Assembly (NCBI GenBank): GCA_903928345.1
Contig: CAIYQO010000302.1
Coordinates: 5,680-69,679, forward strand
Source: an uncultured bacterium
GTDB lineage: Bacteria > Armatimonadota > Hebobacteria > CAIYQO01
Direction of reading: 5' to 3'
Length of the DNA: 64,000 nucleotides
In this document: positions 7,210-63,700 of the stretch, in pieces
Layout of the letters: every line of letters begins with the position of its first letter
How positions within the stretch are numbered: position 1 is the first letter of the stretch
Notes under the pieces: generated by a model
What the model saw: the letters and a program-made list of their open reading frames with translations, nothing else
The model's database searches: none
Told to the model about the DNA's origin: nothing
Program-made: the position numbers and the translations under genes

Positions 7210-7282
7210 GCGACCGCCGTCAAGGGGGATTACGGTTGCAGATTGGTTAGCAAGCGACTGTTTAAATTACCCAACCCTCGGT

Positions 7283-7288
7283 TATAAT
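7283..7288 (+). promoter_or_regulatory. Candidate -10 hexamer (TATAAT) upstream of rtcB.
   Basis: gttATAATagct sits 32 nt upstream of the rtcB ATG. AT hexamers are rare at this GC content. The same TATAATAG(CT) motif recurs at 44328 and 17159 (rc). Confidence 0.35.
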
Positions 7289-7320
7289 AGCTTTCCCTGG
7301 CGGGGAGAAAGAGCTTGGAG

Positions 7321-8769
7321 ATGTTGAAACAGGAGTTTGTGAAGATCACGGAGCAGATCTTCGAGGTGCCGGTGACGTATCGCGCGGGAATGCGCGTGCC
7401 GGCGCGGGTGGTGGCGGACGAGCGGATTTTGGAAGCCGCCCTCGGGGACAATTCGACCGAGCAGTTGGTGAACACCACCATGCTGCCCGGCGTGGTGCGC
7501 TACGCGCTGGCCATGCCGGACATCCACCAGGGGTACGGGCCGCCCATCGGCTGGGTGATTCCCATCGACGCCGCGACGGGCGTCATCTCCCCCGGCGCCA
7601 CGGGGTACGACATCAACTGCGGCGTGCGCCTGTTGCGCGCCGAGGTGGAAGCCGACGAGGTGGTGCCCTTCATGGACGGCCTGGTGCGCGCGCTCTTCAA
7701 CAACGTGCCAAGCGGCGTGGGCAAAGGCGGGGCACTGCGCCTCTCCGACCACGACATGGAAGGCGTGCTGGAAGACGGTGCGCGCTGGGCGGTGCGCAAA
7801 GGTTACGGCGTGCAGGAGGACCTGGAGGTTACCGAAGAAGGCGGCGCCATGCCCGGTGCCGACGCGACGACGGTCAGCCCCTCCGCCAAAGCGCGCGGGC
7901 GCGACCAACTCGGCACGCTGGGCAGCGGCAACCACTTCATCGAGGTGGGCAAGGTCACGGAAATCTTCGACCCCGCCATTGCGGAGGCCTTCGGTCTCTT
8001 CGCGGGGCAGGTGGTGGTGTGGATTCACTCCGGCTCGCGCGGGCTGGGGCACCAGGTCTGCACGGACTACGTGAAGCGCATGCAGAAGTCGGTACGCGAC
8101 TACGATATCACCCTCCCCGACCGCGAGCTGGTGTGCGCGCCCTTCACCTCCCCGGAGGGGCAGGAATACTTCGCGGCAATGGCGGCGGCGGCCAACTTCG
8201 CGTGGGCCAACCGCCAGGCGATGGCGCACCTGGTGCGCCAGACCTTCGACGACGCGCTGGCCGGCAAGGTGCGCCGCCGGGAGTTGCACCAGCTCTACGA
8301 CGTGACGCACAATATCGTAAAGCGCGAGACGTACGAGATCGACGGCGTCGCGCGTGACCTTATCGTGCACCGCAAAGGCGCCACACGGGCCTTCGGACCG
8401 GGGCGCGTCGAAGTGCCGCGCGCCTACCGCGCCGTCGGGCAGCCGGTGCTGGTGCCCGGCAACATGGGCACGGCGAGTTACATCCTGGTAGGCACCGAGA
8501 CAGCGATGACCACCACCTTCGGCAGCGCCTGCCACGGCGCCGGACGCGCCATGAGCCGCTCGAAAGCGCTCAAACAGGTGGACGGCCACATGCTGCAGGA
8601 GCGGCTGGCCCGCGCCGGCATCGTGGTGCGCGGCGGCAGTTGGGACGGCCTGGCCGAGGAAGCCCCGGAGGCGTACAAGAACGTCGACCTCGTGGTCAAC
8701 GTGGTGCACCAGGCCGGCATCGCCCGTAAAGTCGCCCGCACCGTGCCCCTCGGCGTCATCAAGGGGTAG
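7321..8769 (+). CDS. rtcB: RNA-splicing ligase RtcB (3'-phosphate/5'-OH RNA ligase).
   Basis: Hallmark motifs MPDIHQGYG, GYDINCGVR and GSGNHFIEV. The listed ORF begins at a TTG (7315). The ATG at 7321 aligns with archaeal and Thermus RtcB N-termini. Confidence 0.9.
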   Translation: MLKQEFVKITEQIFEVPVTYRAGMRVPARVVADERILEAALGDNSTEQLVNTTMLPGVVRYALAMPDIHQGYGPPIGWVIPIDAATGVISPGATGYDINCGVRLLRAEVEADEVVPFMDGLVRALFNNVPSGVGKGGALRLSDHDMEGVLEDGARWAVRKGYGVQEDLEVTEEGGAMPGADATTVSPSAKARGRDQLGTLGSGNHFIEVGKVTEIFDPAIAEAFGLFAGQVVVWIHSGSRGLGHQVCTDYVKRMQKSVRDYDITLPDRELVCAPFTSPEGQEYFAAMAAAANFAWANRQAMAHLVRQTFDDALAGKVRRRELHQLYDVTHNIVKRETYEIDGVARDLIVHRKGATRAFGPGRVEVPRAYRAVGQPVLVPGNMGTASYILVGTETAMTTTFGSACHGAGRAMSRSKALKQVDGHMLQERLARAGIVVRGGSWDGLAEEAPEAYKNVDLVVNVVHQAGIARKVARTVPLGVIKG

Positions 8770-8826
8770 CGAAAGGTCGGTTCGCTTACGGGAATCTCTC
8801 CTAGACGCGGCCCCCCACCACCCTGA

Positions 8827-8998
8827 CCCCCTCCCCCGTAACGTCCTGTGACAGGGGAGGGGGAATCGGAATAACAAGTGTAGGCGCAGGCTTTAGCCTG
8901 CGATAAGTACTGGTACCGCTTGCAATATCGAGCGCAGGCTGAAGCCTGCGGCTACATTTTCTCCCTTCCCCCCTCACAGGACGTTACGGGGGAAGGGT
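8827..8998. repeat. Composite palindromic element: two inverted copies of a ~38-nt hairpin module flank two REP-like units GCGCAGGCTnnnAGCCTGCGGCTAC.
   Basis: Hairpin cccctcccc/ggggagggg with loop gtaacgtcctgtgaca (8827-8864) and its inverse cccttccccc/gggggaaggg with loop ctcacaggacgttac (8963-8998). Between them are gcgcaggctttagcctgcg (8883-8902) and gcgcaggctgaagcctgcggctac (8932-8955). Confidence 0.6.
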
Positions 8999-10384: not shown

Positions 10385-10491
10385 TGAAAAATGAAAATTG
10401 AAGAGTGAAAAATGCAAATTCCCGGTTCTCGGATACCGCATTTTTCATTTTCAATTTTTCATTTTCCACTTTTCATTCCAAAGGACCTATC
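10384..10491. repeat. AT-rich heptamer-repeat palindrome between etfB and etfA: TGAAAAA-like x5 then TTTTTCA-like x6.
   Basis: gtaATGAAAAATGAAAATTGAAGAGTGAAAAATGC ... GCATTTTTCATTTTCAATTTTTCATTTTCCACTTTTCAT. About 30% GC in a ~70% GC genome, with 7-nt periodicity. The two arms are reverse complements. Confidence 0.55.
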
Positions 10492-11694
10492 ATGTCAATT
10501 CGCGTACTCGAAGACAATTGCACCGGCTGCAAGCAGTGCGTCAAGGCCTGCCCGCAGATGGCGATCAGTATGGACGGGAAACTGGCGACGATCGCGCTGG
10601 ACAACTGCAACTTCTGCGGTTCCTGCGTGAGCACGTGCAAGTTCAAGGCCATCACCATCGAGATCGAAAAGCAGGCGCGGGAAGACCTGTCTGCTTACTC
10701 GGGCGTATGGGTGTTCGGCGAGCAGGACGGCGGCCACCTGGCCGGCGTGGTGCCCGAACTCATCGGCGCCGGACGCAAGCTGGCCGACAAGCGCGGCTGC
10801 AAGCTGGGCGTGGTGCTGCTCGGGGATAATATCGCCGAGTTGGCCGCCGCCGTGGCGAAGTATCCGGTAGACCTGGTCTACGTCTACGACCACCAAAAAC
10901 TCGCCCGCTATCGGCCCGAACCTTACTCCCGCGTGCTCTCCGCGCTGGTGCGCAAGTTCAAGCCGGAGATCGTGCTCGCCGGCGCCACCACCACCGGGCG
11001 CGGCTTCCTCTCCCGCGTGGCCGTCGACCTATACACCGGCCTCACAGCGGACTGCACGGGCCTCGAGATCGGCGACGACGGGCTGCTCTACCAGACCCGC
11101 CCGGCCTTCGGCGGCAACATCATGGCGACGATTCTCTGCCCGTATACCCGGCCGCAGATGTCCACCGTGCGCCATAAGGTGATGCCCGCCGTGCTGCCCG
11201 GCGACACGGTGCGCGCGGAGATCATCAACGTCGAGCCGCAGGAACAGCTCCTCGCCTCCCGCGTGAACATCACCGACTTCATCCGCGACGTCACGCAGAA
11301 GGTAAACCTTGTCGAAGCCGACGTGATCGTCTCCGGCGGGCGCGGCATGGGCAAGCCGGAAAACTTCGCCATCCTGCACGAGCTGGCCGACCTCCTCGGC
11401 GGCGCCGTCGGCTCCTCCCGCGCCGCGGTGGACGCCGGCTGGATGCCCTACCCGCATCAGGTAGGCCAGACGGGTAAAACGGTCTGCCCCAAGCTCTACA
11501 TCGCCTGCGGCATCTCCGGCGCCGTCCAGCACCTCGCCGGCATGCAATCCTCCGATTGCATCATCGCCATCAACCGCGATAAAGACGCCCCCATCTTCCA
11601 AGTCGCCGACTTCGGCTTCGTAGGCGACGCCCTGGAAGTGGTGCCCGAGCTGATCAAAGCCATCAAGGCCAGCAAGGTAGCGGTGGCGATCTAA
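10492..11694 (+). CDS. etfA: Electron transfer flavoprotein alpha subunit with N-terminal 2x[4Fe-4S] ferredoxin domain (FixB-like).
   Basis: [21 protein letters not shown]...[11 protein letters not shown] gives two CxxCxxCxxxC clusters, followed by the EtfA FAD-binding C-terminus ([11 protein letters not shown]). Start at 10492 chosen over the listed 10405. Confidence 0.85.
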
Positions 11695-15354: not shown

Positions 15355-17139
15355 TCAATGCGCGCCGGGGTCGAGTTGCGCGAAGTAATCTTTTACGCGC
15401 TGGGTGTAGCTCGGGGGCACTTGCTCGGCTTCGATGGCGTGCTCGGCGCCCTTGTGGTAGTCGGAGTAGACCTCCGTATACGGCACCCCGGTGCGTCCGC
15501 CGCCGTCGCCACCGCGCACGTCTACCGTGCTCACGCCCGGGTCGCCCGCCGGAAGCGGGTGCTCGCCGACGCCGTAGCCGTTGCGCAGCCCGTGGTGCAA
15601 CGACTGCTGTCCGCCGCCCGCCACATAGGCCGGATCGCCGTCGTGCGTGCCGTAGAAGTTCGGGTTGGGATCTTCGTTCGGCTTGGAATCGTGCCCGGCG
15701 CCATTATTGCCGCCGGTGGCGTTGGGATGCCGGCCGGTGCCCCCACCGCCGGAGCCCTTCTTGCCGCCGGAGCCGCCGCCGCGACCGCCGTTGCGCCCGT
15801 TGCCGTTGCCGTTTTGGCCGCCCTTGCCATTCCCGTTGCCGTTGCCGCGGTTGTTGCCGGACTGGTTGTCCGCCATGGCGCGGCGCGCGTTCTCCATGTT
15901 GCCCATCGCCTGGTTGAGCATATCACCGGCGTCGCTCTGCCCACCGTTGCCGCCGGGCATGTTCGACATGCTGTTGCCCGCCTGCTGCTGCCCCTGCGAC
16001 GTGCCCTGCTGCAACTGTCCTGCGGCGTTGCGCATCGCCTGTGAACTCGCCGACGACCCGTTGCGCTGGGCGGCGTTCGCCATGTGGCGCATCGCCTGCG
16101 ACAGCGCCTGTTGCGCCTGGGGCGACAGGGCGCCGTTCTTCATCGGCACGCCCAACCGGCGCAGCGCGTCGGTGGCGGCAGCCATATTTCCCGCCGCCAG
16201 CGCGCGTTGCAGCGCCTGCATGGCCTCTTCACGCTCCAGCGCGTTGCGCTCTTGCGGGGTGAGCTGCTGCTTGGACAAACCGGCAGCCAGCCGCGCTTTC
16301 GCTTGTTGCGCGGCGGCCTTTTCCGCCTCCGAGCGGCTGTTCAGCGCGGCCTGCGCCTGCGCGGCGGCGTTTTGCAGCTCCTTCTGCGCCTGTTCGACAT
16401 CGTCGCGCACCTTCGCCTGCTGCAGGTGCTCCATCTCGTCGCGCAGCTTATTCCAGCGCTTCATCGCCTCTTTTTTGGGCAGACGGTTCTTTTCCATCTC
16501 CACCGCCAGCTTGCGTAAGCGGCGCACCAGCTGCTGGATTTCCGGGTCGTGGCGCAAGGCGTCGTGTTCGTCGAGCTTTTTCGCCGTCTCGTGCAATGTC
16601 ACCCCGGCGTCGTGCACCGCGGCCCGCTCAGCGCGCGCCATGGGGCTGTAAAACCAGGGTAAATTGGGCAGTAGACAGCCGAGGAGCACCGCCATCCACA
16701 CCGCCAGCGCGGCGCGATAAGGGCGGGCAAAGATGCGTGGAAAGAGCGCCTTGGGATCGAGGCCTTGCAGGTGCGCGACGGCGTCGTCGGTGACGAGGGT
16801 GCGGAATTCCGGGTGCGCCTGCGGATCGGCGAGCAGCGCCACCGCGGTGCTGGCGCGTTCCTGCAGCGCGCAGCGGCGCTCCACGGTAAGGGCAATGGAG
16901 AGTGCGTCGGGGCGGCGGACATAGGCGAGGCCCGCGCCGACCAGCGCGCCAAGGAGGCAGACGATGGTCAGTTCGAGGGGGGTAACGTACCAGATGGTGC
17001 AGAGGTCGATAAGGAGGAGCACCAGCCCCACCACACCGGCGCCGGCCACCCCCCAGCAGATCCAGCGCTCGCAGAAGAGCCACAGGATACGGCGACGGAA
17101 GGCCTGCAGTTGCGCGGCTAATGCGGTTGCGTGGTCCAT
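15355..17139 (-). CDS. Membrane-anchored coiled-coil protein with a long Gln/Asn/Gly-rich low-complexity region and a conserved C-terminal module.
   Basis: Two or three N-terminal TM segments. Long heptad-like coiled-coil (EMEKNRLPKKEAMKRWNKLRDEMEHLQQAK...). Then a ~200-aa N/G/Q-rich tract (NGNGNGKGGQNGNGNG...). C-terminus VPYTEVYSDYHKGAEHAIEAEQVPPSYTQRVKDYFAQL. GGAGG RBS. Start at MDHATAL (17139). Confidence 0.6.
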   Translation of the reverse strand: MDHATALAAQLQAFRRRILWLFCERWICWGVAGAGVVGLVLLLIDLCTIWYVTPLELTIVCLLGALVGAGLAYVRRPDALSIALTVERRCALQERASTAVALLADPQAHPEFRTLVTDDAVAHLQGLDPKALFPRIFARPYRAALAVWMAVLLGCLLPNLPWFYSPMARAERAAVHDAGVTLHETAKKLDEHDALRHDPEIQQLVRRLRKLAVEMEKNRLPKKEAMKRWNKLRDEMEHLQQAKVRDDVEQAQKELQNAAAQAQAALNSRSEAEKAAAQQAKARLAAGLSKQQLTPQERNALEREEAMQALQRALAAGNMAAATDALRRLGVPMKNGALSPQAQQALSQAMRHMANAAQRNGSSASSQAMRNAAGQLQQGTSQGQQQAGNSMSNMPGGNGGQSDAGDMLNQAMGNMENARRAMADNQSGNNRGNGNGNGKGGQNGNGNGRNGGRGGGSGGKKGSGGGGTGRHPNATGGNNGAGHDSKPNEDPNPNFYGTHDGDPAYVAGGGQQSLHHGLRNGYGVGEHPLPAGDPGVSTVDVRGGDGGGRTGVPYTEVYSDYHKGAEHAIEAEQVPPSYTQRVKDYFAQLDPGAH

Positions 17140-17155
17140 CACTTCCTCCCACCCG

Positions 17156-17206
17156 CGAGGTGTTTCTATTATACCACGACGCGGCCCCTCCCGCACGGGA
17201 GGGGCC
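17156..17206 (-). promoter_or_regulatory. Terminator hairpin of the PPIase gene followed by an extended -10 (TGgTATAAT) promoter for the coiled-coil gene.
   Basis: Minus strand reads cggcccctcccgtgcgggaggggccg (hairpin), then cgtGGTATAATag about 20 nt before the ATG at 17139. Confidence 0.4.
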
Positions 17207-40797: not shown

Positions 40798-42866
40798 TCA
40801 CTTGCCGATCACTTCTTCGGCAATGGATTTCGGCACTTCCTGGTAATGCGACGGCTCCATCGCATAGTTGGCGCGGCCTTGCGACAGCGAGCGCACGGTG
40901 GTGGCGTAGCCGAACATTTCGGAGAGCGGCACCTTGGAGCGAATGGCTTGCAGGCCGCCCGGTTGTGCTTCCAGGCCGTCGATATGCGCGCGACGCGAAC
41001 TCAGGTCGCCCATGATCTCGCCCATGTTCAATTCCGGGCAGATCACTTCCACGCGCATGATCGGTTCCAGCAGGATCGGCTTCGCTTTCCGCATCGCCTC
41101 TTTGAAGGCAATGGAGCCGGCGAACTTGAAGGACATCTCGTCGGAGTCCACTTCGTGGTAGGAACCGTCGTAGAGCGTCACCTGCAGGTCGATCACCGGG
41201 TAGCCGCCGAGGACGCCGTTGTCCAGCGCCTCGCGGATCCCCTGTTCCACCGCGGGGATGTACTCACGCGGCACTACGCCGCCCACCACGCCGTCGACGA
41301 AGCGGAAACCGGCGCCGGTCTCCAACGGGGCGATTTCGATGCGGACGTGGCCGTACTTGCCGCGGCCCCCCGTCTGGCGGATGTAGCGCCCTTCGGCCTT
41401 CGCGATCTGCGTGACCGTCTCACGGTACGCAACCTGCGGCCGACCGATGTTCGCTTCGACGCGCGATTCGCGGCGCAGCCGGTCCACGATGATCTCCAGG
41501 TGCAATTCGCCCATGCCGGAGATGATCGTCTGCCCGGTTTCGGCATCGGTGTATTGGCGGAAGGTGGGGTCCTCCGCGGCCAGGCGCACCAACCCGTTGG
41601 TCAACTTCTCCTCGTCCACCTTCGTCTTCGGCTCGATCGCCACCGAGATGACGGGTTCGGGGAAGTGGATCTTTTCCAGCAGCACCTGGTCCGCATGTCC
41701 GGTGAGGGTATCGCCCGTCGTGGTGGTGTCGAGACCGACGACGGCCACGATATCGCCGGCACGCACTTCCTCCACCTCTTCGCGGTGGTTGGCGTGCATG
41801 CGCAGGACACGGCCCAGGCGCTCGCGCTTGCCCTTGCTGACGTTCATCGCGCGGTGCCCTTGGCGACGGTGCCGCTGTAGCAGCGCAGGTAGGTGATGCG
41901 GCCCACGTAGGGGTCGGACATAATCTTAAACGCGAGGGCGCTGAAGGGGGCGTCGTCACTCGGCTCGCGCCAGAGTTCTTCGCCCGTGTGCGGGTCTTCC
42001 CCGCGTACGGCGCCGACGTCCAGCGGCGAGGGGAGGTATTCCACCACGGCGTCCATCAGCGGCTGCACGCCCTTGTTGCGGAAGGAGGCGCCGCAGAGCA
42101 CGGGGACGATCTCGATGCGCAGCGTGCCCGCACGGATTCCCGCGCGGATCTCCTCTTCGCTAAACGTCCCGCCCTCGAGATATTTGTGCATCAGCGTGTC
42201 GCTGCCGTCGGCGGCCGCCTCGATGACGTGCTCGCGATGCTCCAGGGCCAGGGCCATCAGGTCGGCGGGGATCTCCGTTTCGATCATCTGTTGACCCAAC
42301 TCGTCGGGGTACAGCAGCGCGACCATGCGCACCAGGTCAATGACGCCCTTGAACTCGCCCTCTTCGCCGATGGGGAGCTGCAGCGGCACCGGGCGGATGC
42401 CCAGCCGCTCGCGCATGGATTCCAGCACGCGGAAGAAGCTGGCGCCGGTGCGATCCATCTTATTGATGAAGGCGATGCGCGGCACCTTATAGCGATTGGC
42501 CTGCCGCCACACCGTCTCCGATTGCGGCTGCACGCCGCCCACGGCGCAGAACAGGCCGATGACGCCGTCGAGCACGCGCATGGAGCGTTCCACTTCCATG
42601 GTGAAGTCGACGTGTCCCGGCGTGTCGATGATGGTAATCAGGTGGTCGCGCCAGTGGCAGGACGTGGCCGCGGAGGTGATGGTGATGCCGCGTTCCTGCT
42701 CCTGCGGCATCCAGTCCATGGTGGCGGCGCCATCATGCACCTCACCCATGCGATGCAGCCGTCCGGTGTAGAACAGCATGCGCTCGGTGGTCGTGGTCTT
42801 GCCGGCGTCGATGTGCGCGGCGATTCCGATATTACGTGTACGTTCCAGTGGGTATTCTCGTGCCAT
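40798..42866 (-). CDS. fusA: Elongation factor G (canonical fusA), split into two ORFs by an apparent 1-nt indel near 41845.
   Basis: N-terminal half: [27 protein letters not shown]-terminal half: YHEVDS, domain V. The two ORFs abut at 41844/41847. Inserting one nucleotide in gcgcgATGaac restores ...[18 protein letters not shown]..., which is co-linear with Thermus EF-G (TLTSGSYVYNTTKGRKER). Confidence 0.85.
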
Positions 42867-43007
42867 AGTATTCTCAAGCTCCGCGTCCTGCGTGCGCGCC
42901 CTGGGCGCGTCCTGGATCGGCCCGGTTCCCCGAGCAGGCATCCGGGACAGACGAAGTCCCATCCCTATGAACGGGATGGGACTCGTACATGTACCGGAAA
43001 GGGTGTC

Positions 43008-43478
43008 TTAGTACCGGTAGTGGGCGAAGGCCTTGTTGGCTTCGGCCATGCGGTGCGTGTCGTCGCGCTTTTTCACCGAGGCGCCGCTATTATTGGCGGC
43101 GTCCATCAGCTCGCCGGCGAGCTTTTCGCTCATCGTCTTGCCGCCGCGCTTGCGCGCGTTGCTGATGATCCAGCGCATGCCCAGGTCGAGTTTGCGCACG
43201 GCGCGCACTTCCATCGGCACCTGGTAGGTAGCGCCGCCCACGCGGCGAGGACGTACCTCGACGGCGGGGATGACGTTGCGCATGGCAACTTCGAGCACTT
43301 CCAGCGGATCTTTGCTCGTGCGCTTGTTAATCAGATCCAGCGCGCGGTAGAAGATCCCCTCGGCGATGCTTTTCTTGCCGCCGTGCATCATCTTATTGAT
43401 GAAGCGGCTGATCAGCTCACTGTTGTAGACGGCGTCCGGCACGATCAAGCGGCGCGGCGCAGGTCCTTTTCTCGGCAT
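43008..43478 (-). CDS. rpsG: 30S ribosomal protein S7.
   Basis: [22 protein letters not shown] matches S7. Confidence 0.9.
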
Positions 43479-43530
43479 AGTGGTTCAACCCTCACGATGC
43501 GATCTCCGCCCACGGCGGACACACTATTTA

Positions 43531-43980
43531 TTACTTGCGGCCCTTCGCCGCGGCCTGGCCGGGCTTCGGGCGCTTGGCGCCGTATTTCGAACGCCCCTGC
43601 TTACGATTCGCCACGCCGGCGGTATCGAGCACGCCACGGACGATGTGGTAGCGGATCCCCGGCAGGTCCTTCACGCGGCCGCCGCGAATCATCACGACGG
43701 AGTGTTCCTGCAGGTTGTGCCCCTCGCCCGGAATGTAGGCGGTGACTTCGATGCGGTTGGTGAGGCGGACGCGCGCCACTTTGCGCAGCGCCGAGTTCGG
43801 CTTCTTCGGGGTCACGGTCCAGACACGCGTGCAGACGCCGCGCTTCAGCGGGCCCTCGGTCATGACGTACTTGCGCTTATTGCTGTTAAAGTTCCAGCTC
43901 AACGCCCAACGCACGGTCGGGGTGATCTTCACGTGCGCCCGCTGACGCCCCTTACGAACTAATTGATTGATGGTCGGCAC
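43531..43980 (-). CDS. rpsL: 30S ribosomal protein S12 (GTG start).
   Basis: [13 protein letters not shown]...[16 protein letters not shown] matches S12. GGAGAG SD before the GTG at 43980. Confidence 0.9.
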
Positions 43981-44340: not shown

Positions 44341-46563
44341 ATGTCCACCTTTTCGCTGCACCGCTCGGGTCGTCTACTGGGCGCCCTGGCGCTGCTGTTG
44401 TGCGTGGGCGCCTCAGGCGCGCACGCGACGGCGGCGAATTATAATATCCAGGCCACCGCGCAGCCCAAGCGTCTGACCTACGGCGACGACAACCGGGTGA
44501 CGTTGTCCGTGCACGTACTCGACGGGAAAACGGGGGGGCCGGCCGCCGACGGCACGTCGGTCTTCCTCTACACCACGCTGGGCACCCTCTCCGCCACCAC
44601 CTGCTATACGCAGCATGGGGAGATCAGCGCGCTGCTGGACAACACCACCGGCCCGGGCAAGGCGTACGTCACCGTGACCGTGGGGGATACGCAGGAGACA
44701 CTGCTGGTGGAATACCTGGGGGCCGGCGGCACGGCGTCGGGCACGCCGGTGGCGCAGACGCGCCCCAACTATCGGCTGGATGCCGGACAGGTGTATTTCA
44801 GCGCCGACAAACGCATCTTCGACTTGCGCGATACCGCCAAATTCACCGCCCTCGCCTTCACCATCACCGCGGGAGCGATCCAGTACGACGTGGCGAACAA
44901 CATCATCACCGCGCAGAGCGACGTGGTGGTCAACGCGGGGAGCAGCACGATCTCCGGCGAGAAGATGCGCCTGGACCTGGTGACGGGGCGCGGGGCGATC
45001 GTGGTCGTCAACCCGAGCATCGCCTACCTCTCCCTCACGCTGCCCGCGCTGAACGCCCACGAAGACGACGACGCGAAGAGCACCGACTTCACCCCGCTCA
45101 ATCCGTTGCCCACGCACACCTGGATCGTCTGCCACCCGGCGACGATGGCGCCATCCGCGCCGACGCCCCCCCCACCCTACCCCGGTTTTGCCACCTACAA
45201 GGTCGACAAACAGGTCAGCGGCGCACTGCCGGCGGGGATGCGGCCTCCCAAGCTGTGGAAGATGCCCGACTACCAGGTGATCGTCTATCCGAACGACATG
45301 GTGCTCTTCCACCAGCCGTCCTTTTACCTCAACGAATTCGACCATCCGCTTTTTTCCCTCCCCTACCACGTGCTCGACCTGCGCACGCCGCAGGGGGGCA
45401 CCTTCTTCAACAGCGACATCAGCCTGGCGTCGGACGCCGGGTTGAACATTGACTTTCCCTTCTACTACATCGCCACGGGCAACCGCACCGGGGCGCTGCA
45501 CTTCCGCCGCGTCACGCCCGGGTCGCAATACTTCCGTGGGGAATCCGGCTTCCAGTTGGATATGGAGGAAGAGTACCTGGTGGGCAACAAAACGGGGGAC
45601 GGCGGCGTCTACTTCGACGACCTGACCAACCCCACGCGCAGTATTTCGTGGGATCACAACCAGACGTTCGGATCGAATACGCACCTCAGCATGAACGCCT
45701 CCTATAGCCGCTACACCGCCGATACGCCCTACACGGCGCGCGGAGGGTTTGACTACTCACGCTCCTTCGGGCCCATCAACACCAACCTGCGCGCCACGGT
45801 GTCGCAGTTCCAGGAGCACCAGAACGGCGTCTACGAGCTGTACGTCACCCCCCCGGCGGTACCGTTGTTGCGCAACAAGATAACGCTGAGCTTCTCGCCT
45901 TATATCGGGTTCGAGCACGACAGCGACGTGAACGCCACCACCAACGAAAAGACGGCGACAAACAGCTTCTACCAGGGGTTGGGCACCTCGCTGGGGCTGC
46001 CTTCCTTCTCGAAGTGGGGCTGCGGCATCACGGAGAACGTGAGCAACGAACTCTCGCGTGACGGCGCCGGCACGGTGACCGACTACATCGACCTGGGCGC
46101 CAGCCTGCGGCGCGACCTGATCGACTCCTTCACCACCTCGTTGACCTACGGGTATAGCATTACGCGCACCTTCATCGCGGCGCCCGGCATCATGCCGGCG
46201 TCCACCCAGCCCAGCCAGCATCTCAGCGTGGACCTGACCGGCGGGCGGGCGCAGCGGTGGAGCTTCTACGCGTATTCGTCATATACCATCGAGTCAAAGT
46301 CGTTGTACAATTCCCTGACCTACACCTATTACCCGCCCTTCGACCGCGCGAAGGACGGCACCCCGCGTTTGTTTATCCGCTTCACCGCCCACCAGACCAC
46401 CGGCGATGTCAGCACCACCGACCAGCTCATCTCCGTCGGGCGCAATATCGGCCTGTACACCGTGGTGTGCCACTTCTCCCCCACCGGCAACACCGGCGTC
46501 TCCGGCATCGGCTCCGCCACCGGCCAGTCCTTCGCGGTGGAGCTGCAACGGCAGGGGTTCTGA
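44341..46563 (+). CDS. LptD/OstA-like outer-membrane LPS-assembly protein (signal peptide, OstA-like N-domain, beta-barrel, C-terminal Phe).
   Basis: Signal peptide LLGALALLLCVGASGAHA. OstA-like beta-jellyroll block (YFSADKRIFDLRDTA...ITAQSDVVVNAGSSTISGEKM). Y/G/S/T-rich alternating C-terminal 400 aa ending ...LQRQGF. Confidence 0.6.
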   Translation: MSTFSLHRSGRLLGALALLLCVGASGAHATAANYNIQATAQPKRLTYGDDNRVTLSVHVLDGKTGGPAADGTSVFLYTTLGTLSATTCYTQHGEISALLDNTTGPGKAYVTVTVGDTQETLLVEYLGAGGTASGTPVAQTRPNYRLDAGQVYFSADKRIFDLRDTAKFTALAFTITAGAIQYDVANNIITAQSDVVVNAGSSTISGEKMRLDLVTGRGAIVVVNPSIAYLSLTLPALNAHEDDDAKSTDFTPLNPLPTHTWIVCHPATMAPSAPTPPPPYPGFATYKVDKQVSGALPAGMRPPKLWKMPDYQVIVYPNDMVLFHQPSFYLNEFDHPLFSLPYHVLDLRTPQGGTFFNSDISLASDAGLNIDFPFYYIATGNRTGALHFRRVTPGSQYFRGESGFQLDMEEEYLVGNKTGDGGVYFDDLTNPTRSISWDHNQTFGSNTHLSMNASYSRYTADTPYTARGGFDYSRSFGPINTNLRATVSQFQEHQNGVYELYVTPPAVPLLRNKITLSFSPYIGFEHDSDVNATTNEKTATNSFYQGLGTSLGLPSFSKWGCGITENVSNELSRDGAGTVTDYIDLGASLRRDLIDSFTTSLTYGYSITRTFIAAPGIMPASTQPSQHLSVDLTGGRAQRWSFYAYSSYTIESKSLYNSLTYTYYPPFDRAKDGTPRLFIRFTAHQTTGDVSTTDQLISVGRNIGLYTVVCHFSPTGNTGVSGIGSATGQSFAVELQRQGF

Positions 46564-49491: not shown

Positions 49492-49821
49492 TCAGATCTT
49501 CTCGAACCGCTCCACGTCGAGCACAAATACAATCGCCCCGCCGACGAGGACTTTGACGGGGCTGGGGATCACGGTGCCGACGGGCTCCATGGTGGGGGGC
49601 ATCACGTTGACGTACTGCTCGCGGGTCTGGCAGCTTTCACGGATGACATCGATGGCCTGCTCGACCTGATCTTCGTCGACGCCGATGAGGAGGGTGACGT
49701 TGCCTTCGCGCAGGAAGCCGCCGGTGCTGGCCACGTTGGTGAATTGGAAGGCGCTTTCGAGCAGGCTGTCCTGCACGTGCCGCTGATCCTTTTCATGAAC
49801 CACCGCGATCACCAGTTTCAT
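49492..49821 (-). CDS. darA: PII-like c-di-AMP receptor DarA (YaaQ family).
   Basis: MKLVIAVVHEKDQRHVQDSLLESAFQFTNVASTGGFLREGNVTLLIGVDEDQVEQAIDVIRESCQTREQ closely parallels Bacillus YaaQ/DarA. Confidence 0.8.
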   Translation of the reverse strand: MKLVIAVVHEKDQRHVQDSLLESAFQFTNVASTGGFLREGNVTLLIGVDEDQVEQAIDVIRESCQTREQYVNVMPPTMEPVGTVIPSPVKVLVGGAIVFVLDVERFEKI

Positions 49822-50462
49822 CTCATGCCTCCCATCGCCATCGTCGTTTCCACCGCCCGGCGCACCGCCGTCTGCACGGCGTCCACCGTGCCCGTGCCGT
49901 CGATCACCGCCATGTGCATCTCCGCCGCCAGCGCCCGGTAGCCATCCACCACGCGCTGCAAAAAGGCGCGGCCCTCGCCTTCGAACCGATCCTGCCGCGC
50001 GCCGATGCGCGCTAGCGCGGCCTCCAGCGGCACGTCGATGAGCAGCGTCAGGTCAGGGGTCACCCCCTGCGTCGCCACCGCGTCGACGGCGCGAATCTCG
50101 TCCACCGGCAGTCCGCGCCCGAACCCCTGGTACGCCAGCGAGGAGGGCGAGAAGCGGTCGGAGACCACCGTCACGCCGTCGCGCAGTGCGGGGGCAATCA
50201 CCTCCGCCACGTGCTGGGCGCGCGCCGCCTCGATGAGCAGCAGTTCGGCGCGCGGGTCGCAGGCTACCGTGCCGTGCAAAATCGTCTCGCGGAGCCGCTC
50301 CCCCAGCGCCGTGCCGCCCGGCTCGCGCGTGAGCAGCACCCGCCGCCCCTCCGCGCGCAGCCAGTCCGCCAGCAACGCCGCCTGCGTCGATTTACCGCTG
50401 CCATCCACGCCTTCCACCACGAGAAACCACGCGGGAAGGGCGGCAAAGGAGGGCTCGATCAT
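49818..50462 (-). CDS. tmk: Thymidylate kinase.
   Basis: VVEGVDGSGKSTQ P-loop and DRF motif, 214 aa. It is the 3' part of the listed 49818..51398 ORF. Start ATG at 50462. tmk-darA order as in Bacillus. Confidence 0.85.
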   Translation of the reverse strand: MIEPSFAALPAWFLVVEGVDGSGKSTQAALLADWLRAEGRRVLLTREPGGTALGERLRETILHGTVACDPRAELLLIEAARAQHVAEVIAPALRDGVTVVSDRFSPSSLAYQGFGRGLPVDEIRAVDAVATQGVTPDLTLLIDVPLEAALARIGARQDRFEGEGRAFLQRVVDGYRALAAEMHMAVIDGTGTVDAVQTAVRRAVETTMAMGGMR

Positions 50463-50630
50463 GTACTCATTGTAGCCTTGCCGCCCGGCGGCGTCAAGGC
50501 GAACGGGAGCAAGGGGGAGGGCCGGGTGAGCCGGGCATTCACCAAGCGTGCTTGATCTTCCACCCGGCCCTCCCCCATTCTCCGACCGCAGTTGCACGAC
50601 GGGCGGAATTCCGGTTACAATGCCGCGCGT

Positions 50631-51419
50631 ATGGCATACAACACGGGGACATATCTGGATCGCATTCTGGCGGACACGGCGGCGGGACTGGCGGCGCGGG
50701 GGGATTTGCCCATGGCGCCTCCGGCGGTGATTCCGGCGGCACGCGGGTTCGCGCAGGCGCTGGCCGGGCCGGAGATCGCGCTCATCGCCGAGGTGAAGAA
50801 GGCTTCGCCGTCGCGCGGGCTGATCCGGGCGGACTTCCACCCGGCGGAAATCGCTCGCGCCTACGCCTCCGCCGGCGCCGCGGCCATCTCCGTGCTCACA
50901 GAGGAGCGGTATTTCCAGGGACGGCTGAGCTACCTGGACGACGTGCGCGCGGCGGCGCCGCTTCCGCTGCTGCGCAAGGACTTCATCATCCATCCCGCGC
51001 AGATTTTCGAAGCCGTGGGGCACGCCGACGCCGTGCTGCTCATCGTGGCGGCGCTCTGCCCCGGCGAACTGCGCGACCTGCGGGCGGTGGCCACGGCATG
51101 TGGGCTGGACACGCTCGTGGAAGTGCACGACCGCGCGGAGCTGGAGATCGCGCTGGAGATCGGCGCGCCGGTCATCGGCATCAACAACCGCGACCTGCGC
51201 ACCTTCACCATCAACCTGCAAACCACCTTCGCCTTGCGCCCGCACATCCCCGCCGGCACGCGCGTGGTGAGCGAGAGCGGCATCACCACCCACGCCCAGG
51301 TGGCCGCGCTGGCGGACGCCGGGGTGGACGGCATCCTGGTCGGCGAGGCGTTTATGCGTGCGGCGGACATCGCCGGCGCGGTGCGCACGCTGCTGCACGG
51401 GCCGTCAACGGACGGGTAA
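50631..51419 (+). CDS. trpC: Indole-3-glycerol phosphate synthase.
   Basis: LDRILADT...ALIAEVKKASPSRG...ISVLTEERYFQG...LLRKDFII...NNRDL match TrpC motifs. Confidence 0.85.
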   Translation: MAYNTGTYLDRILADTAAGLAARGDLPMAPPAVIPAARGFAQALAGPEIALIAEVKKASPSRGLIRADFHPAEIARAYASAGAAAISVLTEERYFQGRLSYLDDVRAAAPLPLLRKDFIIHPAQIFEAVGHADAVLLIVAALCPGELRDLRAVATACGLDTLVEVHDRAELEIALEIGAPVIGINNRDLRTFTINLQTTFALRPHIPAGTRVVSESGITTHAQVAALADAGVDGILVGEAFMRAADIAGAVRTLLHGPSTDG

Positions 51420-56621: not shown

Positions 56622-57791
56622 ATGAAACGCTCAGGCTTTACTTTGATCGAGTTGCTAGTCGTAATCGCGATAATAGCGATCCTTGCCGCCATCCTCTTTC
56701 CCGTCTTCGCCAAAGCGCGTGAGAAGGCCCGCCAGACCTCCTGCCTGAACAATCAGAAGCAGATCTGCACCGCGACGCTCATCTACGCGCAGGACAACAG
56801 TGAACTGCTCCCCCCGTCCGATGGGTACTGGGGCTACGTCAACCTGGACAAAGGCGCACTGATCTGCCCCACCGCGGGCACCAAGCGCACCTACGGGTAC
56901 GGCTACAACAGCAACATCGCCGGGATGGCGCTGGGCGAACTCAGCCCGCCGGAAACGACGTTGCTCACCGCCGACACCACCTCCGCCACCGGCATCCTCG
57001 TCGCGATGTCCGACATCGACAAGCGCCACGGGATCTCGACCATTGCCTCCTTCCTCGACGGCCACGTGGAGATCACCAGCAGCCTGCCCACCATCGCCAT
57101 CGCGAACATCGACCTGATGGCCTCTGCCGTGCTGCCGGCGACGGGCGACACTATCTCGAACAACACCCCGGTCGGCAGCCCGGTGTGGACACGCAGCCCC
57201 GCCACCGACAGCAACTGGCGCACCCCCACCACGGGCATCGCCGGGGCCTGGGGCGCGAGCGTGGTGGGTGGCTACACCTGCAGCATGGACCCCAACGACG
57301 GCAAGGCGGCGCCGTGCATCTACGTCGGGCAGTACGGCGGCGGCACGACAGTGAACCTGTACCGCTCGATGGGCACCAACACCAATCTCTCAGAGTGGAT
57401 CATCGAAGGCGATGTCTGCTTCCAGCCAGGCGGCAACCGCGGACTCTACGTCAACGTCCAGGATGCCAGCGGCAATGATATTACCTCGATCAAGCGCGAA
57501 TCCGTCACCACGGCCGGTACGCAAAAGCTCGCCTTCAACGGCACCTACCTGTATCCGTTCGGCACCTCCCAGACTGACGCCGCGCTGAACGCCATCACCA
57601 ATATCTGGCAGCACTTCAAAGTCTCCTGCTATGCGGGCAAAGCGCTGTTCGAATACAACGGCGGCCGTTGGGAATACGGCACCATCGGCGGGGTGTGGAA
57701 CAGCCCCTCCCGGGTGTGTATTCGCAGCGAAGACTGGGGCCACGGCGGCGACGTACTCGTCGACAACCTGAAGATGGGTGTGTCGAAATAA
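56622..57791 (+). CDS. Prepilin-type H-X9-DG family protein, second paralog, with homologous C-terminal lectin-like domain.
   Basis: The N-terminal 45 aa are nearly identical to the first paralog. It has ...SFLDGHVE. The C-domains align ([20 protein letters not shown]; [30 protein letters not shown]; [18 protein letters not shown]). Confidence 0.8.
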
Positions 57792-57826
57792 TAGGGGTAT
57801 GGCCGAGACGACCATGCCACAACGCC

Positions 57827-57866
57827 AAACGCCCCGCGTCGCACGACGCGGGGCGTTTCTTTTACT
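57827..57866 (+). terminator. Rho-independent terminator (13-14-bp stem, T-rich tail) between convergent H-X9-DG-2 and dnaJ.
   Basis: aaacgccccgcgtcg-cac-gacgcggggcgttt then cttttact. Confidence 0.6.
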
Positions 57867-57934
57867 GGTTACAGAACCGTGGCACGGGCTTCTCGCCCGT
57901 GACGTTCATGGCCGGGACGGCCAGGCCACAAACC

Positions 57935-59098
57935 CTACCCGCCGAAGGCTTCCTTCGCCCGGTCGCGGTATTCATCCACCACGTCGCCCACGACATCCTT
58001 CACCTTCTGGAAGACGCCTTTGTGCTTGTGGTCGATATTCTCCCCGCGCGCGTCGGCCAGCTCACGCAGCAGTTCGCGCTGTTTCGGGTCCAAATCGGTA
58101 GGTACGGCGATGCCGACCACGATGTGCTGGTCGCCGCGATGCGCGCCGCGCTGGGTGGGCATCCCTTTGCCCTTGAGGTGGAAGATGTGGCCGGGTTGCG
58201 TGCCGGGCGGCACGTCGATCTCCGCCTGCCCGTCCAGCGTGGGCACGGACACCTTGCCGCCCAGGGCGGCGGTGGTGAAGGGCAGCGCGGTTTCACAGAT
58301 GAGGTCGGCGCCCTTGCGGGTAAAGACGGGGTGCGCCTTCACGTGAAAAACCACCGCCAGGTCGCCTGCGGGCCCACTGTGCGGCCCGGCGTCGCCCTTG
58401 CCGCCGAATTCCATGTACATCCCGCTGTCGACGCCTTGCGGCACGGTGATGGACAGCTCGTCCATCGTGCGCGTGCGCCCCGCGCCGTGGCACGCCGTGC
58501 ATGGATTGGTGATAATCTGCCCGGTGGCTCCGCAGCGCTCGCAGGGGGTGACGGTGGTGAACTGCATGCCGAGGAAGCCGGCATTGGCCTGCCGTTGCCC
58601 GGTGCCGCCGCACGCCACGCAGGTGGTCACACGGCCGTTTTCCGACCCCGTGCCATGGCAGGTGCCACAGGTCGCCTGATGGGGAAAACGGATGGTGCGT
58701 TCGCCGCCGAACGCGGCCTCTTCCAGCGTGATCTCCAGGTCGTAGCGCAGATCGTTGCCGCGGTTGGTGGGACGTCCGCCGCCCATGCCGCCCACGTTGA
58801 AAAAACCGCCGAGGATATCGCCGAACATGTCGTCGAAGCCCGCGCCGCGCCCGCCGCCCCCCGCGGCACCGGACAGCCCCGCGTGGCCGAAACGGTCATA
58901 CGCGGCCCGTTTTTGCGGGTCGCTGACGGCATCGTACGCTTCGCCGAGTTCTTTGAACTGCTCCTCGGCGTGGGGATCCTCGCGGTTCACGTCCGGATGG
59001 AGCTGGCGTGCCTTTTGCCGGTAGGCCTTCTTGATCTCCTCCGGCGACGCGTCGCGTTCGACACCCAGTACTTCGTAATAGTCACGCTTATTGGCCAT
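57935..59098 (-). CDS. dnaJ: Molecular chaperone DnaJ (J domain, G/F region, 4x CxxCxGxG zinc finger, C-terminal domains).
   Basis: KRDYYEVLGV...HPD; CGTCHGTG, CVACGGTG, CERCGATG, CTACHGAG. Start ATG at 59098 with GAAGG RBS. The listed ORF extends to 59206 through a partial duplication of the start. Confidence 0.9.
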   Translation of the reverse strand: MANKRDYYEVLGVERDASPEEIKKAYRQKARQLHPDVNREDPHAEEQFKELGEAYDAVSDPQKRAAYDRFGHAGLSGAAGGGGRGAGFDDMFGDILGGFFNVGGMGGGRPTNRGNDLRYDLEITLEEAAFGGERTIRFPHQATCGTCHGTGSENGRVTTCVACGGTGQRQANAGFLGMQFTTVTPCERCGATGQIITNPCTACHGAGRTRTMDELSITVPQGVDSGMYMEFGGKGDAGPHSGPAGDLAVVFHVKAHPVFTRKGADLICETALPFTTAALGGKVSVPTLDGQAEIDVPPGTQPGHIFHLKGKGMPTQRGAHRGDQHIVVGIAVPTDLDPKQRELLRELADARGENIDHKHKGVFQKVKDVVGDVVDEYRDRAKEAFGG

Positions 59099-59235
59099 AT
59101 GCCTTCGATCGTTGTCGCGCGCGCGAGACCCCGGGTCGTTGCGTCGTCGGGCATTTCGCGCAGCATCACCGTTGCGGTAGTAGTCACGTTTAGGGGCCAT
59201 CGGCACTCGCTCGTCACCGCATACCCGTGACCCGT

Positions 59236-60793: not shown

Positions 60794-63700
60794 TTAATCG
60801 CCGCGCAACCCGTCGAGCAGCCGCCCGCGGGTGGCGGGCCAGGCGGTGAAGGCGGTGGCGGCGATGCCCAGTGCCAGGTTGCCTCCGAGCATGACGGCCA
60901 CGCCGCCCCAGGCCACGTGGGCGGTACCGAGTTGCGGCGCCACCGCCGCGAGGGCGGCGACGGCCCCGAGAAGCTGCCCGGCAACGAGCAGGCCGATGTT
61001 TTCCAGCAGCAGCAGGCGCACGAGCTGGGCGCGCGTGAAACCGACCGCGAGGAGCAGCGCGAACTCCCGCCGGCGCTCCAGCGCGTTGCGCAGCAGCACC
61101 ACCACCAGTCCCAGCGTGCCCAGCAACAAGCCCAGCCCGCCGAGAGCGAGGAAGCAGGCGAGGTAGGTATTTTCCACCCGCGCGTAGTCGGCCAGCACCT
61201 CGCGCGTCGGATGCACTTCCAGCCCCAGGTCACCCAGTGTGCGCCGCAGGGAAGCCGCCACCGCGTCGGCCTTTTCCCTCGGCGCCGAAATGAGAAAGTA
61301 CCGCGGCGCTGAGATGCCCGGGTACAGCGTGCGGAAGTTGGTGTCGGAGACGAGCAGCGCGTTGGCGAAGAGGCTGCCGGGCAGCACGCCCACGATATGC
61401 AGCGGTGCCGGCGCCCCCGCCAGCGGCACCCGCCCGCCCAACTCCGCGTGCAGCGACCACTCCACGCTATCGGCGTCGCCGAAGGCGGGGAAGGCGTCAT
61501 TTTCCGTCAGCAGCGCCCACGGCTGCGCCGTCGGTTTCGCGGTATTGATGGTGAAGCCGCCGCGTGCGCGCAGCGCGTCCGGCACCCCGAGCAGGCGCGG
61601 GGCGGCGCTCTTCGCCAGGTTCAAACAGCTCACTTCGTCGCCGGGGCTCTCCAGGAAGGGGTAGACCTGTACGCCGGCAAAAAGCGGTTCGTCCTCCGGC
61701 GCGAAACCGAGTTTCTCGCGCCCCGTCGGTGTGCCGAAGTCGTAGAGGATGGGCAGCGAGGCGGTAGCGAGCAGCGTGAAGCCCCCGGCGCCGGAGCGCG
61801 GGTCGCTGACATCGAAGCGCGAGAAGTCACGCACGCTGGCCGCCACGGTGATGAGCAGGAAGCTCGCGCACGCCAGCAGGCCGATCACCAGCACGCTGCG
61901 CCCGCGGTTAGCCGCCGCGTTGCGCAGCGCCAGGCGGGGGAAGGTGGGCACGCCGGGAGTCAACGCGCGCGCGAGCAACTGCCCGCACCCGAGCAACCCC
62001 GCCACGAGCAGCGCCGCGCCGCCGCAGAAGAAGGCCTCCAGCGGGGAGAGGGCGTGCGCCGCGCCGGCGGCAAAGCAGCCGACCGCCAACACCGCGCTGC
62101 CACCCAGCGCCCAGGCGCCGCGCGGTGGGGCGGGCAGCATCGCCAGCGCCTGCGCGCCGCCGAGGAGATCCGTCACCCGCGCCTTTTTCAACGCGCGCGT
62201 CCCCCACCAGGCTGCGGGCAGGCCGATCACAAAGCCCGACACCGCACCAATCCACAGGCTGCCCGGCGTGGCGTGGAACCACAGCGGGGTATCCGCCACC
62301 GCGCCCGCCCACCAGGTGGTCAGCGCGTGCACCACACCCCAGCCGTACAGCGCGCCCAACGGCACACCGATAACGGCCCCAAGCGCTGCCAGTGCGGCGC
62401 CTTCCGCCAGCAAGATACCTGTCACCGTGCGCGGCGCAATGCCCACCGCCAGCAGCAGCCCCACCTCGGCGGCGCGACGGTCGATCAACAAGCGCATGGT
62501 CATCGCCGCCAGCCCGACCGCCGCGGCGATGAGGAAAAAGCCCAGCGCCAGGAAGAGTCCCGCGAAGTCGGTGGCGCCTTCCGAGGCCGCCAGCGCCTGC
62601 GTGCGCACCGGCAGCGTCGGCACCCCCGCGGCTTCCGGGGGCAGCACCGCCGAGAGCGCGGTGGTGAAGCGCCGTGCCTGCGCCGCAAAATCGCCGGCGG
62701 GCACGCTGACGCGCACTCCCGTCACCCAATCCGCCTGTGCCCCCTCCGGCCCGCGCGCCCACAGCGCCCGCGCCGTTTCCAGGCTTACGAAGGCTTTCGG
62801 CGTGGTGCGGTAGCGCTGCCAGTACGTCTCGTCGCGCGGGGTGACGCGGTGCATGTCAACGGGGAAGGGCGGCGCCCATTCGTCGATGCGCTCCGCCGTG
62901 CTGATGCCGCGCAGCGGAGGCACGCAGGCGGTATCCGGCACCGTCGGCACCACGCCGCGCACGGTAAGGGGCCTCGTTTCCGTGCGGTAGACACCGTCCC
63001 ACGCGGGCACCAGGTAGCTGAGCGTCAGCACATCACCCGGCTTTGCGGCCAGATCCTCCGCGCTCCACGTGCTCAACCAGACCCCGTCCCCGTGCGCCTC
63101 CACCCCCGGCGGGGGCGCACCGAGCAGGGCGTAGGACGTGCCGTGCGCCGCGCCGGTGAGTTCGGCAGCGAGGTAAAACGAGGTCGGCGCCGCGCGCACG
63201 CCCGCGCGATCCGCCGCGTCGGCGATGGCCTTCACCATGGGCCGACGCAGCAGCAGGTCGGTGCTCTGCACGGTGAGGGTGCGTGCCGCGGGGTTGGTTT
63301 TCAGTGTCAGGCCCAGGTCGTCGAGGGTGGCGTGCGTCCGTACCGCTTCCGCCAGCTCCGTGCCGTGGGAGACGATTACATTCGCCAGCCCCGCGTCGTC
63401 GAGCTGCCCCTGCAACCAGTGCAAATCGATGAACACGTTGCGCGGGGTTTGCGAAGAGGCCGTCAGCGCGAAGCCCCCCACCCCGCGGTCGGGCAGGATG
63501 GCCGCCACGGTAAGGCGTACCGTACGCAGCGCCGCTTGCCGGGAGCGCTGCGCGAAGAGGGAATCCGCCGGCCCGGCCCCCGCGCGCGGCACGTGGAGAA
63601 TTACGTCGTCCCCCACCGCCACGCCCAGGTCGCGCGCCAGCGCCGCATTCACCGCCGCCTGCCGCCCGTTCACCGGGTTCGCGGTACCGAAGAGCGCCCA

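Follow-up and report, generated by a model that had tools for sequence, protein, structure and literature searches.

A window of 64,000 nucleotides (nt) from an uncultured bacterium of the Armatimonadota (contig CAIYQO010000302.1) was analyzed with respect to a gene on the minus strand at positions 15355 to 17139, which encodes a three-pass membrane protein of 594 amino acids (aa). New here are the definition of the family to which this protein belongs and the recurrent linkage of that family to clusters of ABC-2, MoxR, DUF58 and vWA genes. The open reading frame (ORF) extends from 15355 to 17196 when read from a GTG codon, giving 613 aa; the reported start is the ATG at 17139. This ATG was considered a credible start because a Shine-Dalgarno-like GGGAGG lies 5 nt upstream of it, because P0001, a homologue with 65% identity, starts with the same Met-Asp-His (MDH...) and because an identical 594-aa product is already recorded among the called genes of a 113-kb contig. 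Homologues with 65%, 38% and 35% identity cover 99% of the length of the protein. The gene proposed in the initial annotation is real. The features of the locus are collected in Table 1.

The architecture of the protein was examined by Kyte-Doolittle analysis and with an AlphaFold2 (AF2) model generated from a 27-sequence alignment (mean predicted local distance difference test [pLDDT] score, 76.5). Hydrophobic blocks were detected at aa 25 to 75, comprising two transmembrane (TM) helices with a short loop between them, and at aa 142 to 163, while the AF2 model placed helices in the membrane part at residues 3 to 47, 54 to 74 and 139 to 159. Combination of these data predicted three TM helices where two or three had initially been proposed. 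The loop between TM1 and TM2 is short and uncharged and the N terminus carries a cluster of Arg residues; the family consensus retains both this cluster before TM1 and an RR pair after TM2. The segment between TM2 and TM3 bears the most conserved residues of the family, with a motif of D-x4-L-x-E-R-x-S-T-A, and K plus R account for 9 of the 72 residues across aa 76 to 147. In alignments of 80 and 102 sequences, the near-invariant residues were A83, D87, L92, E94, T98, A99, D119 and P134 of this segment together with Y585 and F586, such that conservation is concentrated in aa 83 to 134 and in two residues near the C terminus. Application of the positive-inside rule to the Arg-rich N terminus and the basic TM2-TM3 segment suggested an N-in, C-out topology, in which the segment with the ER.STA motif would be cytoplasmic and everything after TM3 would be extracytoplasmic.

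The ~260 aa following TM3 (aa 166 to 427) are helical in the AF2 model, with a pLDDT of ~90. This region had been described as a long coiled coil but, being split into about a dozen separate helices of 4 to 46 residues each, is more likely to form a helical bundle or a coiled-coil-like structure than one continuous coiled coil. The next region is biased and of low complexity, as originally described, but is shorter than the ~200 aa then assigned to an Asn/Gly/Gln-rich tract. Residues 431 to 536 contain ~30% G, 19% N and about 4 to 6% Q; N+G+Q reaches a maximum of 61% in the 100-aa window from aa 383, and N+G amounts to 67% in the 60 aa from residue 425. These composition windows and the low pLDDT at residues 431 to 536 indicated a disordered stretch of ~105 to 150 aa. 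Within the corresponding DNA, an imperfect hexanucleotide array of CCGTTG (8.5 copies) at 15797 to 15847 encodes an (Asn-Gly)n run. The presence of a hypermutable tandem repeat in this tract was considered and rejected, as the hexamer array exhibits 66% matches and is too degenerate for a slippage-prone contingency repeat. The AF2 model places a small C-terminal module at residues 538 to 589, and the 45-aa hairpin in which the protein terminates ends with ..VKDYFAQLDP, wherein the Y and F are the nearly invariant Y585 and F586. The C-terminal sequence VPYTEVYSDYHKGAEHAIEAEQVPPSYTQRVKDYFAQL, noted at the outset as conserved, is present in the protein and is indeed conserved among its relatives.

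Table 1. Features of the 594-aa gene and its upstream region (positions in the 64-kb window)
Feature	Position	Strand	Basis or remark
GC-rich hairpin, perfect 11-bp stem, GUGC loop, right after the cyclophilin stop codon	17182..17207	-	Fold; without U-tract
Extended -10-like box TGGTATAAT (TGgTATAAT)	17168..17176	-	Unchanged in loci that carry the 65%-identical homologue
Shine-Dalgarno-like GGGAGG, 5 nt 5' of the ATG	17145..17150	-	GGGAG kept in L001 to L003
Complete coding sequence, 594 aa plus TGA stop at 15355-15357	15355..17139	-	ORF, homologue alignment
Short Arg-rich N terminus (..FRRRI..), predicted cytoplasmic, then TM1-TM2 hairpin, aa 1-75	16915..17139	-	Hydrophobicity, AF2
Basic helical segment TM2-TM3, predicted cytoplasmic, aa 76-141	16717..16914	-	Near-invariant columns; positive-inside rule
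Third TM helix, then (L)LPN motif, aa 142-163	16651..16716	-	Hydrophobicity, AF2; family consensus LLPNPQ
Ala/Gln/Leu/Arg-rich helical region, predicted extracytoplasmic, aa 166-427	15859..16644	-	AF2
Disordered Gly/Asn-rich low-complexity tether, aa 431-536	15532..15849	-	pLDDT <50
Conserved C-terminal module, aa 538-594	15358..15528	-	Short beta segment, then two-helix hairpin

Relatives of the protein were first obtained by word-indexed searches, which yielded 8 and then 42 sequences. An exhaustive HMMER search of 1.84 billion cluster representatives, in which only the N-terminal 183 positions served as the query, matched 14,018 representative clusters at an E value of ≤1e-3, 6,961 at ≤1e-10 and 247 at ≤1e-30. 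By these profile matches, the 594-aa protein is a member of a very large unnamed family of at least ~7,000 clusters. The plan shared by this family consists of an Arg-rich N terminus, two TM helices, a basic segment of ~65 aa with the D-x4-L-x-E-R-x-S-T-A motif (the only one that is strongly conserved), a third TM helix and an LPNPQ motif, followed by a long Ala/Gln/Glu-rich helical region (~250 aa), a G/Q-rich tract and a C-terminal module with the pattern vPY..V...Y...A..A......P......V..YF..L. The window protein fits the family definition of an N-terminal and then a C-terminal profile with helices and a low-complexity tract between them, scoring 183.7 bits with the N-terminal hidden Markov model (HMM) and 67.4 bits with the C-terminal HMM; this protein belonged to the seed alignments of both models, and independent members behaved alike.

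Co-occurrence of the two conserved modules was examined in 100 full-length representatives among the 150 best N-terminal matches, all of which were retrieved without use of the C terminus. The C-terminal module, counted as present when scoring ≥15 bits and positioned at the C terminus, was detected in 90 of these representatives (median, 54 bits) and in none of the shuffled controls. The script itself gave a count of 91 of 101, which includes P0063, a partial sequence that apparently stops inside the Q-rich tract. Most of the representatives without the module have Arg-rich, frameshift-like tails. A low-complexity tract was present in 129 of 133 members and is, hence, a hallmark of the family; it had a median length of 98 aa (range, 0 to 303 aa), and Gly was its main residue in 63 members and Gln in 57. 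Both length and composition vary freely, as would be expected for a spacer. The initial view that this composition is unusual for bacteria was not borne out, since such a tract is normal in this very large family; among its properties, only the richness in Asn is particular to the lineage of the window. The term prion-like describes the composition only, the tract being Gly/Asn-rich in this lineage and Gly/Gln-rich elsewhere.

The initial annotation had recognized no family, and this finding was upheld by the absence of any match of the window protein above noise in Pfam or NCBIfam. Searches of Pfam, NCBIfam, PADLOC, PHROG and PDB sequences with the window protein and its relatives detected nothing above threshold, with the PADLOC (anti-phage defense) and PHROG (phage) models producing noise-level coiled-coil matches only. 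A strong HMM match to a characterized family was looked for in these five collections and not found.

Genomic neighborhoods were examined in 17 distinct loci. A scan of a genome collection with coiled-coil peptides resulted in no confirmed locus, and a second scan with L[QK]ERASTAV resulted in four loci. A six-frame HMM scan detected exactly one family member in each of the 17 loci and the C-terminal module in all but L015. A MoxR gene was located ≤8 kb from the family gene in 10 of the 17 loci, from about six separate lineage groups, and genes for an ABC ATPase and an ABC-2 permease were directly upstream in nine. The order of ~760- to 920-aa protein, ABC ATPase, ABC-2 permease, family protein and MoxR was observed in eight loci (L006, L008, L009, L010, L011, L013, L014 and L018), and in seven of these (all except L009) MoxR was followed by DUF58 and BatA/VWA. 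In L006, L008, L010, L011 and L018, the genes after MoxR (AAA_3) encode DUF58, BatA_N+VWA and VWA/GATase1-like proteins. The same order up to BatA/VWA was found in two GTDB loci, L013 (Ca. Promineifilaceae) and L014 (Anaerolineae), while L009 has the same upstream half plus MoxR and exhibits a 4-nt overlap of the ABC-2 permease gene with the family gene. Other arrangements were an ABC, ABC-2, ABC-2, family order without MoxR in L019 and, in the Planctomycetota-type loci L007 and L015, a family gene followed by genes for an NHL propeller, one or more large vWA/GATase1-like proteins and MoxR. The ~760- to 920-aa protein heading the cluster has no firm Pfam match and a weak match to DUF7408. The eight-gene cluster occupies positions 3446 to 16022 of L006, 3702 to 16098 of L008, 3143 to 15852 of L010, 3281 to 15738 of L011 and 4063 to 17717 of L018, and is partial in L013, L014 and L009. 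No description of this cluster as a unit was found in the literature searched.

Few bacterial gene clusters of unknown mechanism are as widespread as the MoxR-DUF58-vWA (Bat-type) operons, for which links to aerotolerance, envelope integrity and virulence have been described. The linkage of the family to such genes suggested, with a probability of roughly 40%, that the 594-aa protein and its relatives serve as a membrane-anchored tether or accessory subunit of a Bat/MoxR-type envelope machinery. A role in the cell envelope, as first envisaged, would fit both the predicted topology and the neighborhoods of the relatives. The three TM helices would hold the conserved ER.STA segment at the membrane as a cytoplasmic docking site, which may contact the MoxR AAA+ ATPase, DUF58, BatA-type vWA proteins or the ABC-2 permease. 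Outside the membrane, the helical stalk would be continued by a flexible tether of variable length and free composition, and through these two parts the C-terminal hairpin would reach a binding partner in the periplasm or cell wall. In the genome of the window, the gene is uncoupled from the ABC-2/MoxR cluster. In a stronger form of this proposal, which is unlikely, the family would be an unrecognized, widespread core component of a composite envelope machine made up of an ABC-2 exporter, a MoxR AAA+ protein, DUF58 and BatA/vWA proteins, with MoxR/DUF58 engaging the ER.STA segment and the tethered hairpin acting as a trans-envelope ligand or sensor.

Described systems with which the loci were compared are the Bat operon of B. 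fragilis, BB0170-0176 of Borrelia and cmdA-D of R. leguminosarum. The family resembles these systems in the proximity of many of its genes to MoxR, with DUF58-BatA/VWA genes next in seven loci, and resembles BatA-type proteins in being a multi-pass membrane protein with a large part predicted to be noncytoplasmic. It differs in that the family protein contains no vWA, TPR, SH3, BatD or AAA+ domain and matches no described Bat protein, and in that the window copy adjoins no MoxR, DUF58 or BatA/vWA gene. The MoxR-DUF58-BatA-class operon of Rhizobium (cmdA-D) has been connected with the integrity of the envelope and with cell morphology, and the vWA domain of a BatA-like protein of Borrelia has been assigned to the periplasm (PMC5700661). 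DUF58 still has no known role (PMC12067865).

Several observations weigh against a role in Bat/MoxR machinery. The 17 loci are a small, nonrandom sample of a family with thousands of clusters, and six of them (the window, L001, L004, L005, L012 and L020) have neither MoxR nor an ABC-2 transporter nearby. No homologues of MoxR, DUF58, BatA or vWA proteins were detected by tblastn in the 64-kb window. In the two classical MoxR operons examined, those of S. meliloti and T. roseum, the six-frame HMM scan found no family member, the T. roseum locus being a different operon type with DUF4129; the family protein is, hence, a frequent but not an obligatory neighbor of MoxR/Bat genes. Topology, localization and partner interactions, and with them the tether role, are all inferred. 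Furthermore, accessory subunit denotes a partnership rather than a chemistry, as the function of MoxR/Bat systems is itself unknown.

The S. meliloti locus also bears on the idea that the cmd operon of rhizobia has a gene for a DUF4175 protein in fourth place. This idea was dropped because the locus consists of MoxR, DUF58, DUF4159 and a GATase1-like membrane ORF and contains no family member. The sequence in question (L016; CP090106.1 in PLSDB) is labeled as S. meliloti plasmid pSymB but, at 3.72 Mb, looks like a mislabeled chromosome; it carries L25, pth and ychF as well as the MoxR-DUF58-DUF4159 operon. The GATase1-like gene after DUF4159, at about 13.7 to 15.7 kb in the locus, is absent from the gene table.

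A somewhat unlikely alternative to the Bat/MoxR tether is that the family is a distant, divergent relative of DUF4175/TIGR02302-type proteins with a MoxR-independent role in cell division or in biogenesis of the envelope. TIGR02302 proteins have an N-terminal TM anchor and then a long low-complexity region that is rich in Gln and Gly and has a predicted location outside the membrane; the family protein is similar in both respects, a generic likeness by which homology is not established. DUF4175 (PF13779) was the only Pfam family to be matched recurrently among the members, always at the N-terminal end of its 825-position HMM and below the gathering score of 27.3 bits. Matches to positions 1 to 112 were obtained with P0005 and P0018 (E values of ~1e-3; 16.9 and 18.4 bits), 5 of 80 representatives had matches at an E value of ≤0.01 (best, 4.1e-5) and a consensus of the Planctomycetota subgroup aligned co-linearly with positions 1 to 181 (E value of 0.003; 16.1 bits). 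The few studied proteins with these annotations touch on division or the envelope: AdvA of A. baumannii, which has an annotated DUF4175 domain and two TM helices, is an essential division protein (PMC7481262), a TIGR02302 gene of R. sphaeroides is a direct target of CenR, a regulator of division and the envelope (PMC9275681), and a TIGR02302 mutant of A. caulinodans is described, through a reference cited in PMC6842974, as having a phenotype in exopolysaccharide and infection. That the window gene stands alone would also fit a MoxR-independent role.

Set against these points is the absence of any match to DUF4175 from the window protein (even at an E value of ≤10), the whole-family consensus or the Chloroflexota-type consensus; use of consensus sequences did not raise the DUF4175 score. 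TIGR02302 (NCBIfam) was absent from the matches of the window protein and from those of 80 representatives at an E value of ≤0.01. A word-indexed profile search with a chimera of the N- and C-terminal modules produced 10 matches, none of which had PF13779, and a tblastn search of plasmids with a Planctomycetota-type N terminus found nothing. The DUF4175 matches that were detected lie mostly over the TM helices, which align easily, and the two families differ in size (825 profile positions versus ~500 to 650 aa). No counterpart of the ER.STA motif or the C-terminal YF hairpin was demonstrated in DUF4175. With all scores below gathering and three of the queries without a match, the kinship to DUF4175 is a lead and not a finding.

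It is also conceivable, although quite improbable, that the protein is a TolA/TonB-like envelope-spanning connector, docking on a partner in the outer layer and coupled to the adjacent ABC-2 transporter and not to MoxR. The plan of the family resembles that of TolA in having a membrane anchor, a long helical spacer rich in Ala, Lys, Glu and Gln and a small C-terminal module, and the TolA model (TIGR02794) gave a weak match over the helical region, with an E value of 0.0024 and a score of 17 bits versus a cutoff of 59.45 bits, which is short of membership. The ABC/ABC-2 pair directly upstream in nine loci, one of which is the MoxR-less L019, and the overlap of the permease and family genes in L009 would be consistent with such coupling. 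The family protein, however, has three TM helices, an extra cytoplasmic motif domain and a disordered G/N tether, its C-terminal helical hairpin replaces the fold of TolA domain III, and no Tol-Pal genes are adjacent. That the Gly/Asn/Gln tract might drive phase separation or prion-like assembly and make the protein a condensate-forming scaffold is very improbable: the tract is strongly biased, predicted to be disordered and kept as a feature across the family, but its free drift among G-, Q- and N-rich compositions and in length is typical of a linker and not of a sequence-specific assembly domain, and its predicted location is on the outer side of the cytoplasmic membrane, with a conserved module at either end.

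In the window itself, the gene is located 3' of a gene for a secreted cyclophilin (PF00160). Within the clade of the window, this order of cyclophilin and then family gene occurs at the end of a ribosomal protein/rpoA/truA/L13-S9/S20/thyX/dut region, and the window gene is followed by a glyoxalase-fold gene and a gene for an MGH1-like glycoside hydrolase. These neighbors point to no function for the 594-aa protein. For the 86 nt between the two genes, the folding energy is -41.7 kcal/mol (z = -4.2 versus shuffles). The hairpin, the TGGTATAAT box and GGGAG are all kept in three contigs (L001 to L003) carrying the P0001 homologue, and the hairpin stem in these contigs has one compensatory pair change, from C-G to T-A. 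The window gene had been assigned an extended -10 promoter of its own directly after a terminator of the cyclophilin (peptidyl-prolyl isomerase) gene. Both elements are present and conserved, but the proposed arrangement is no more than plausible because the hairpin has no U-tract, no -35 element is found at consensus spacing from the box and a simple consensus scan flagged neither element. Transcription of the window gene appears to start from an extended -10 promoter of its own that lies 3' of the cyclophilin gene.

A number of other features were observed in the window. ARAGORN calls a 93-nt tRNA-Thr(GGT) at 62257 to 62349 (minus strand), which is probably a false call; it sits in the FtsX-domain part (aa 473 to 593) of a 1,055-aa ORF at 60794 to 63961 (minus strand), in DNA of ~70% GC. 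The ORF at 10405 to 11694 (plus strand) encodes the alpha subunit of an electron-transfer flavoprotein and has a two-[4Fe-4S] ferredoxin domain at its N terminus. In the 526-aa ORF at 49818 to 51398 (minus strand), a thymidylate kinase domain is confined to the C-terminal ~200 aa, indicative of either an over-extended start or an uncharacterized N-terminal extension. Five ORFs of 484 to 740 aa, at 406 to 2427, 41988 to 43745, 44341 to 46563 and 57668 to 59230 (plus strand) and at 7282 to 8877 (minus strand), have no Pfam match at an E value of ≤1e-5; some of these overlap ORFs on the opposite strand and may be GC-driven shadow frames. No rRNA or Rfam matches were detected in the window.

An ORF that appeared odd and prion-like is, thus, an ordinary member of a large family. 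As this family has a rigid plan, extends over several phyla and has no Pfam or NCBIfam model, it represents a concrete gap in annotation. If the family were a core component of the composite envelope machine, the long-enigmatic Bat/MoxR systems would gain a defined trans-envelope element. Encoded in several phyla with an ABC-2 transporter on one side and MoxR on the other, the family is also a candidate handle on these systems.

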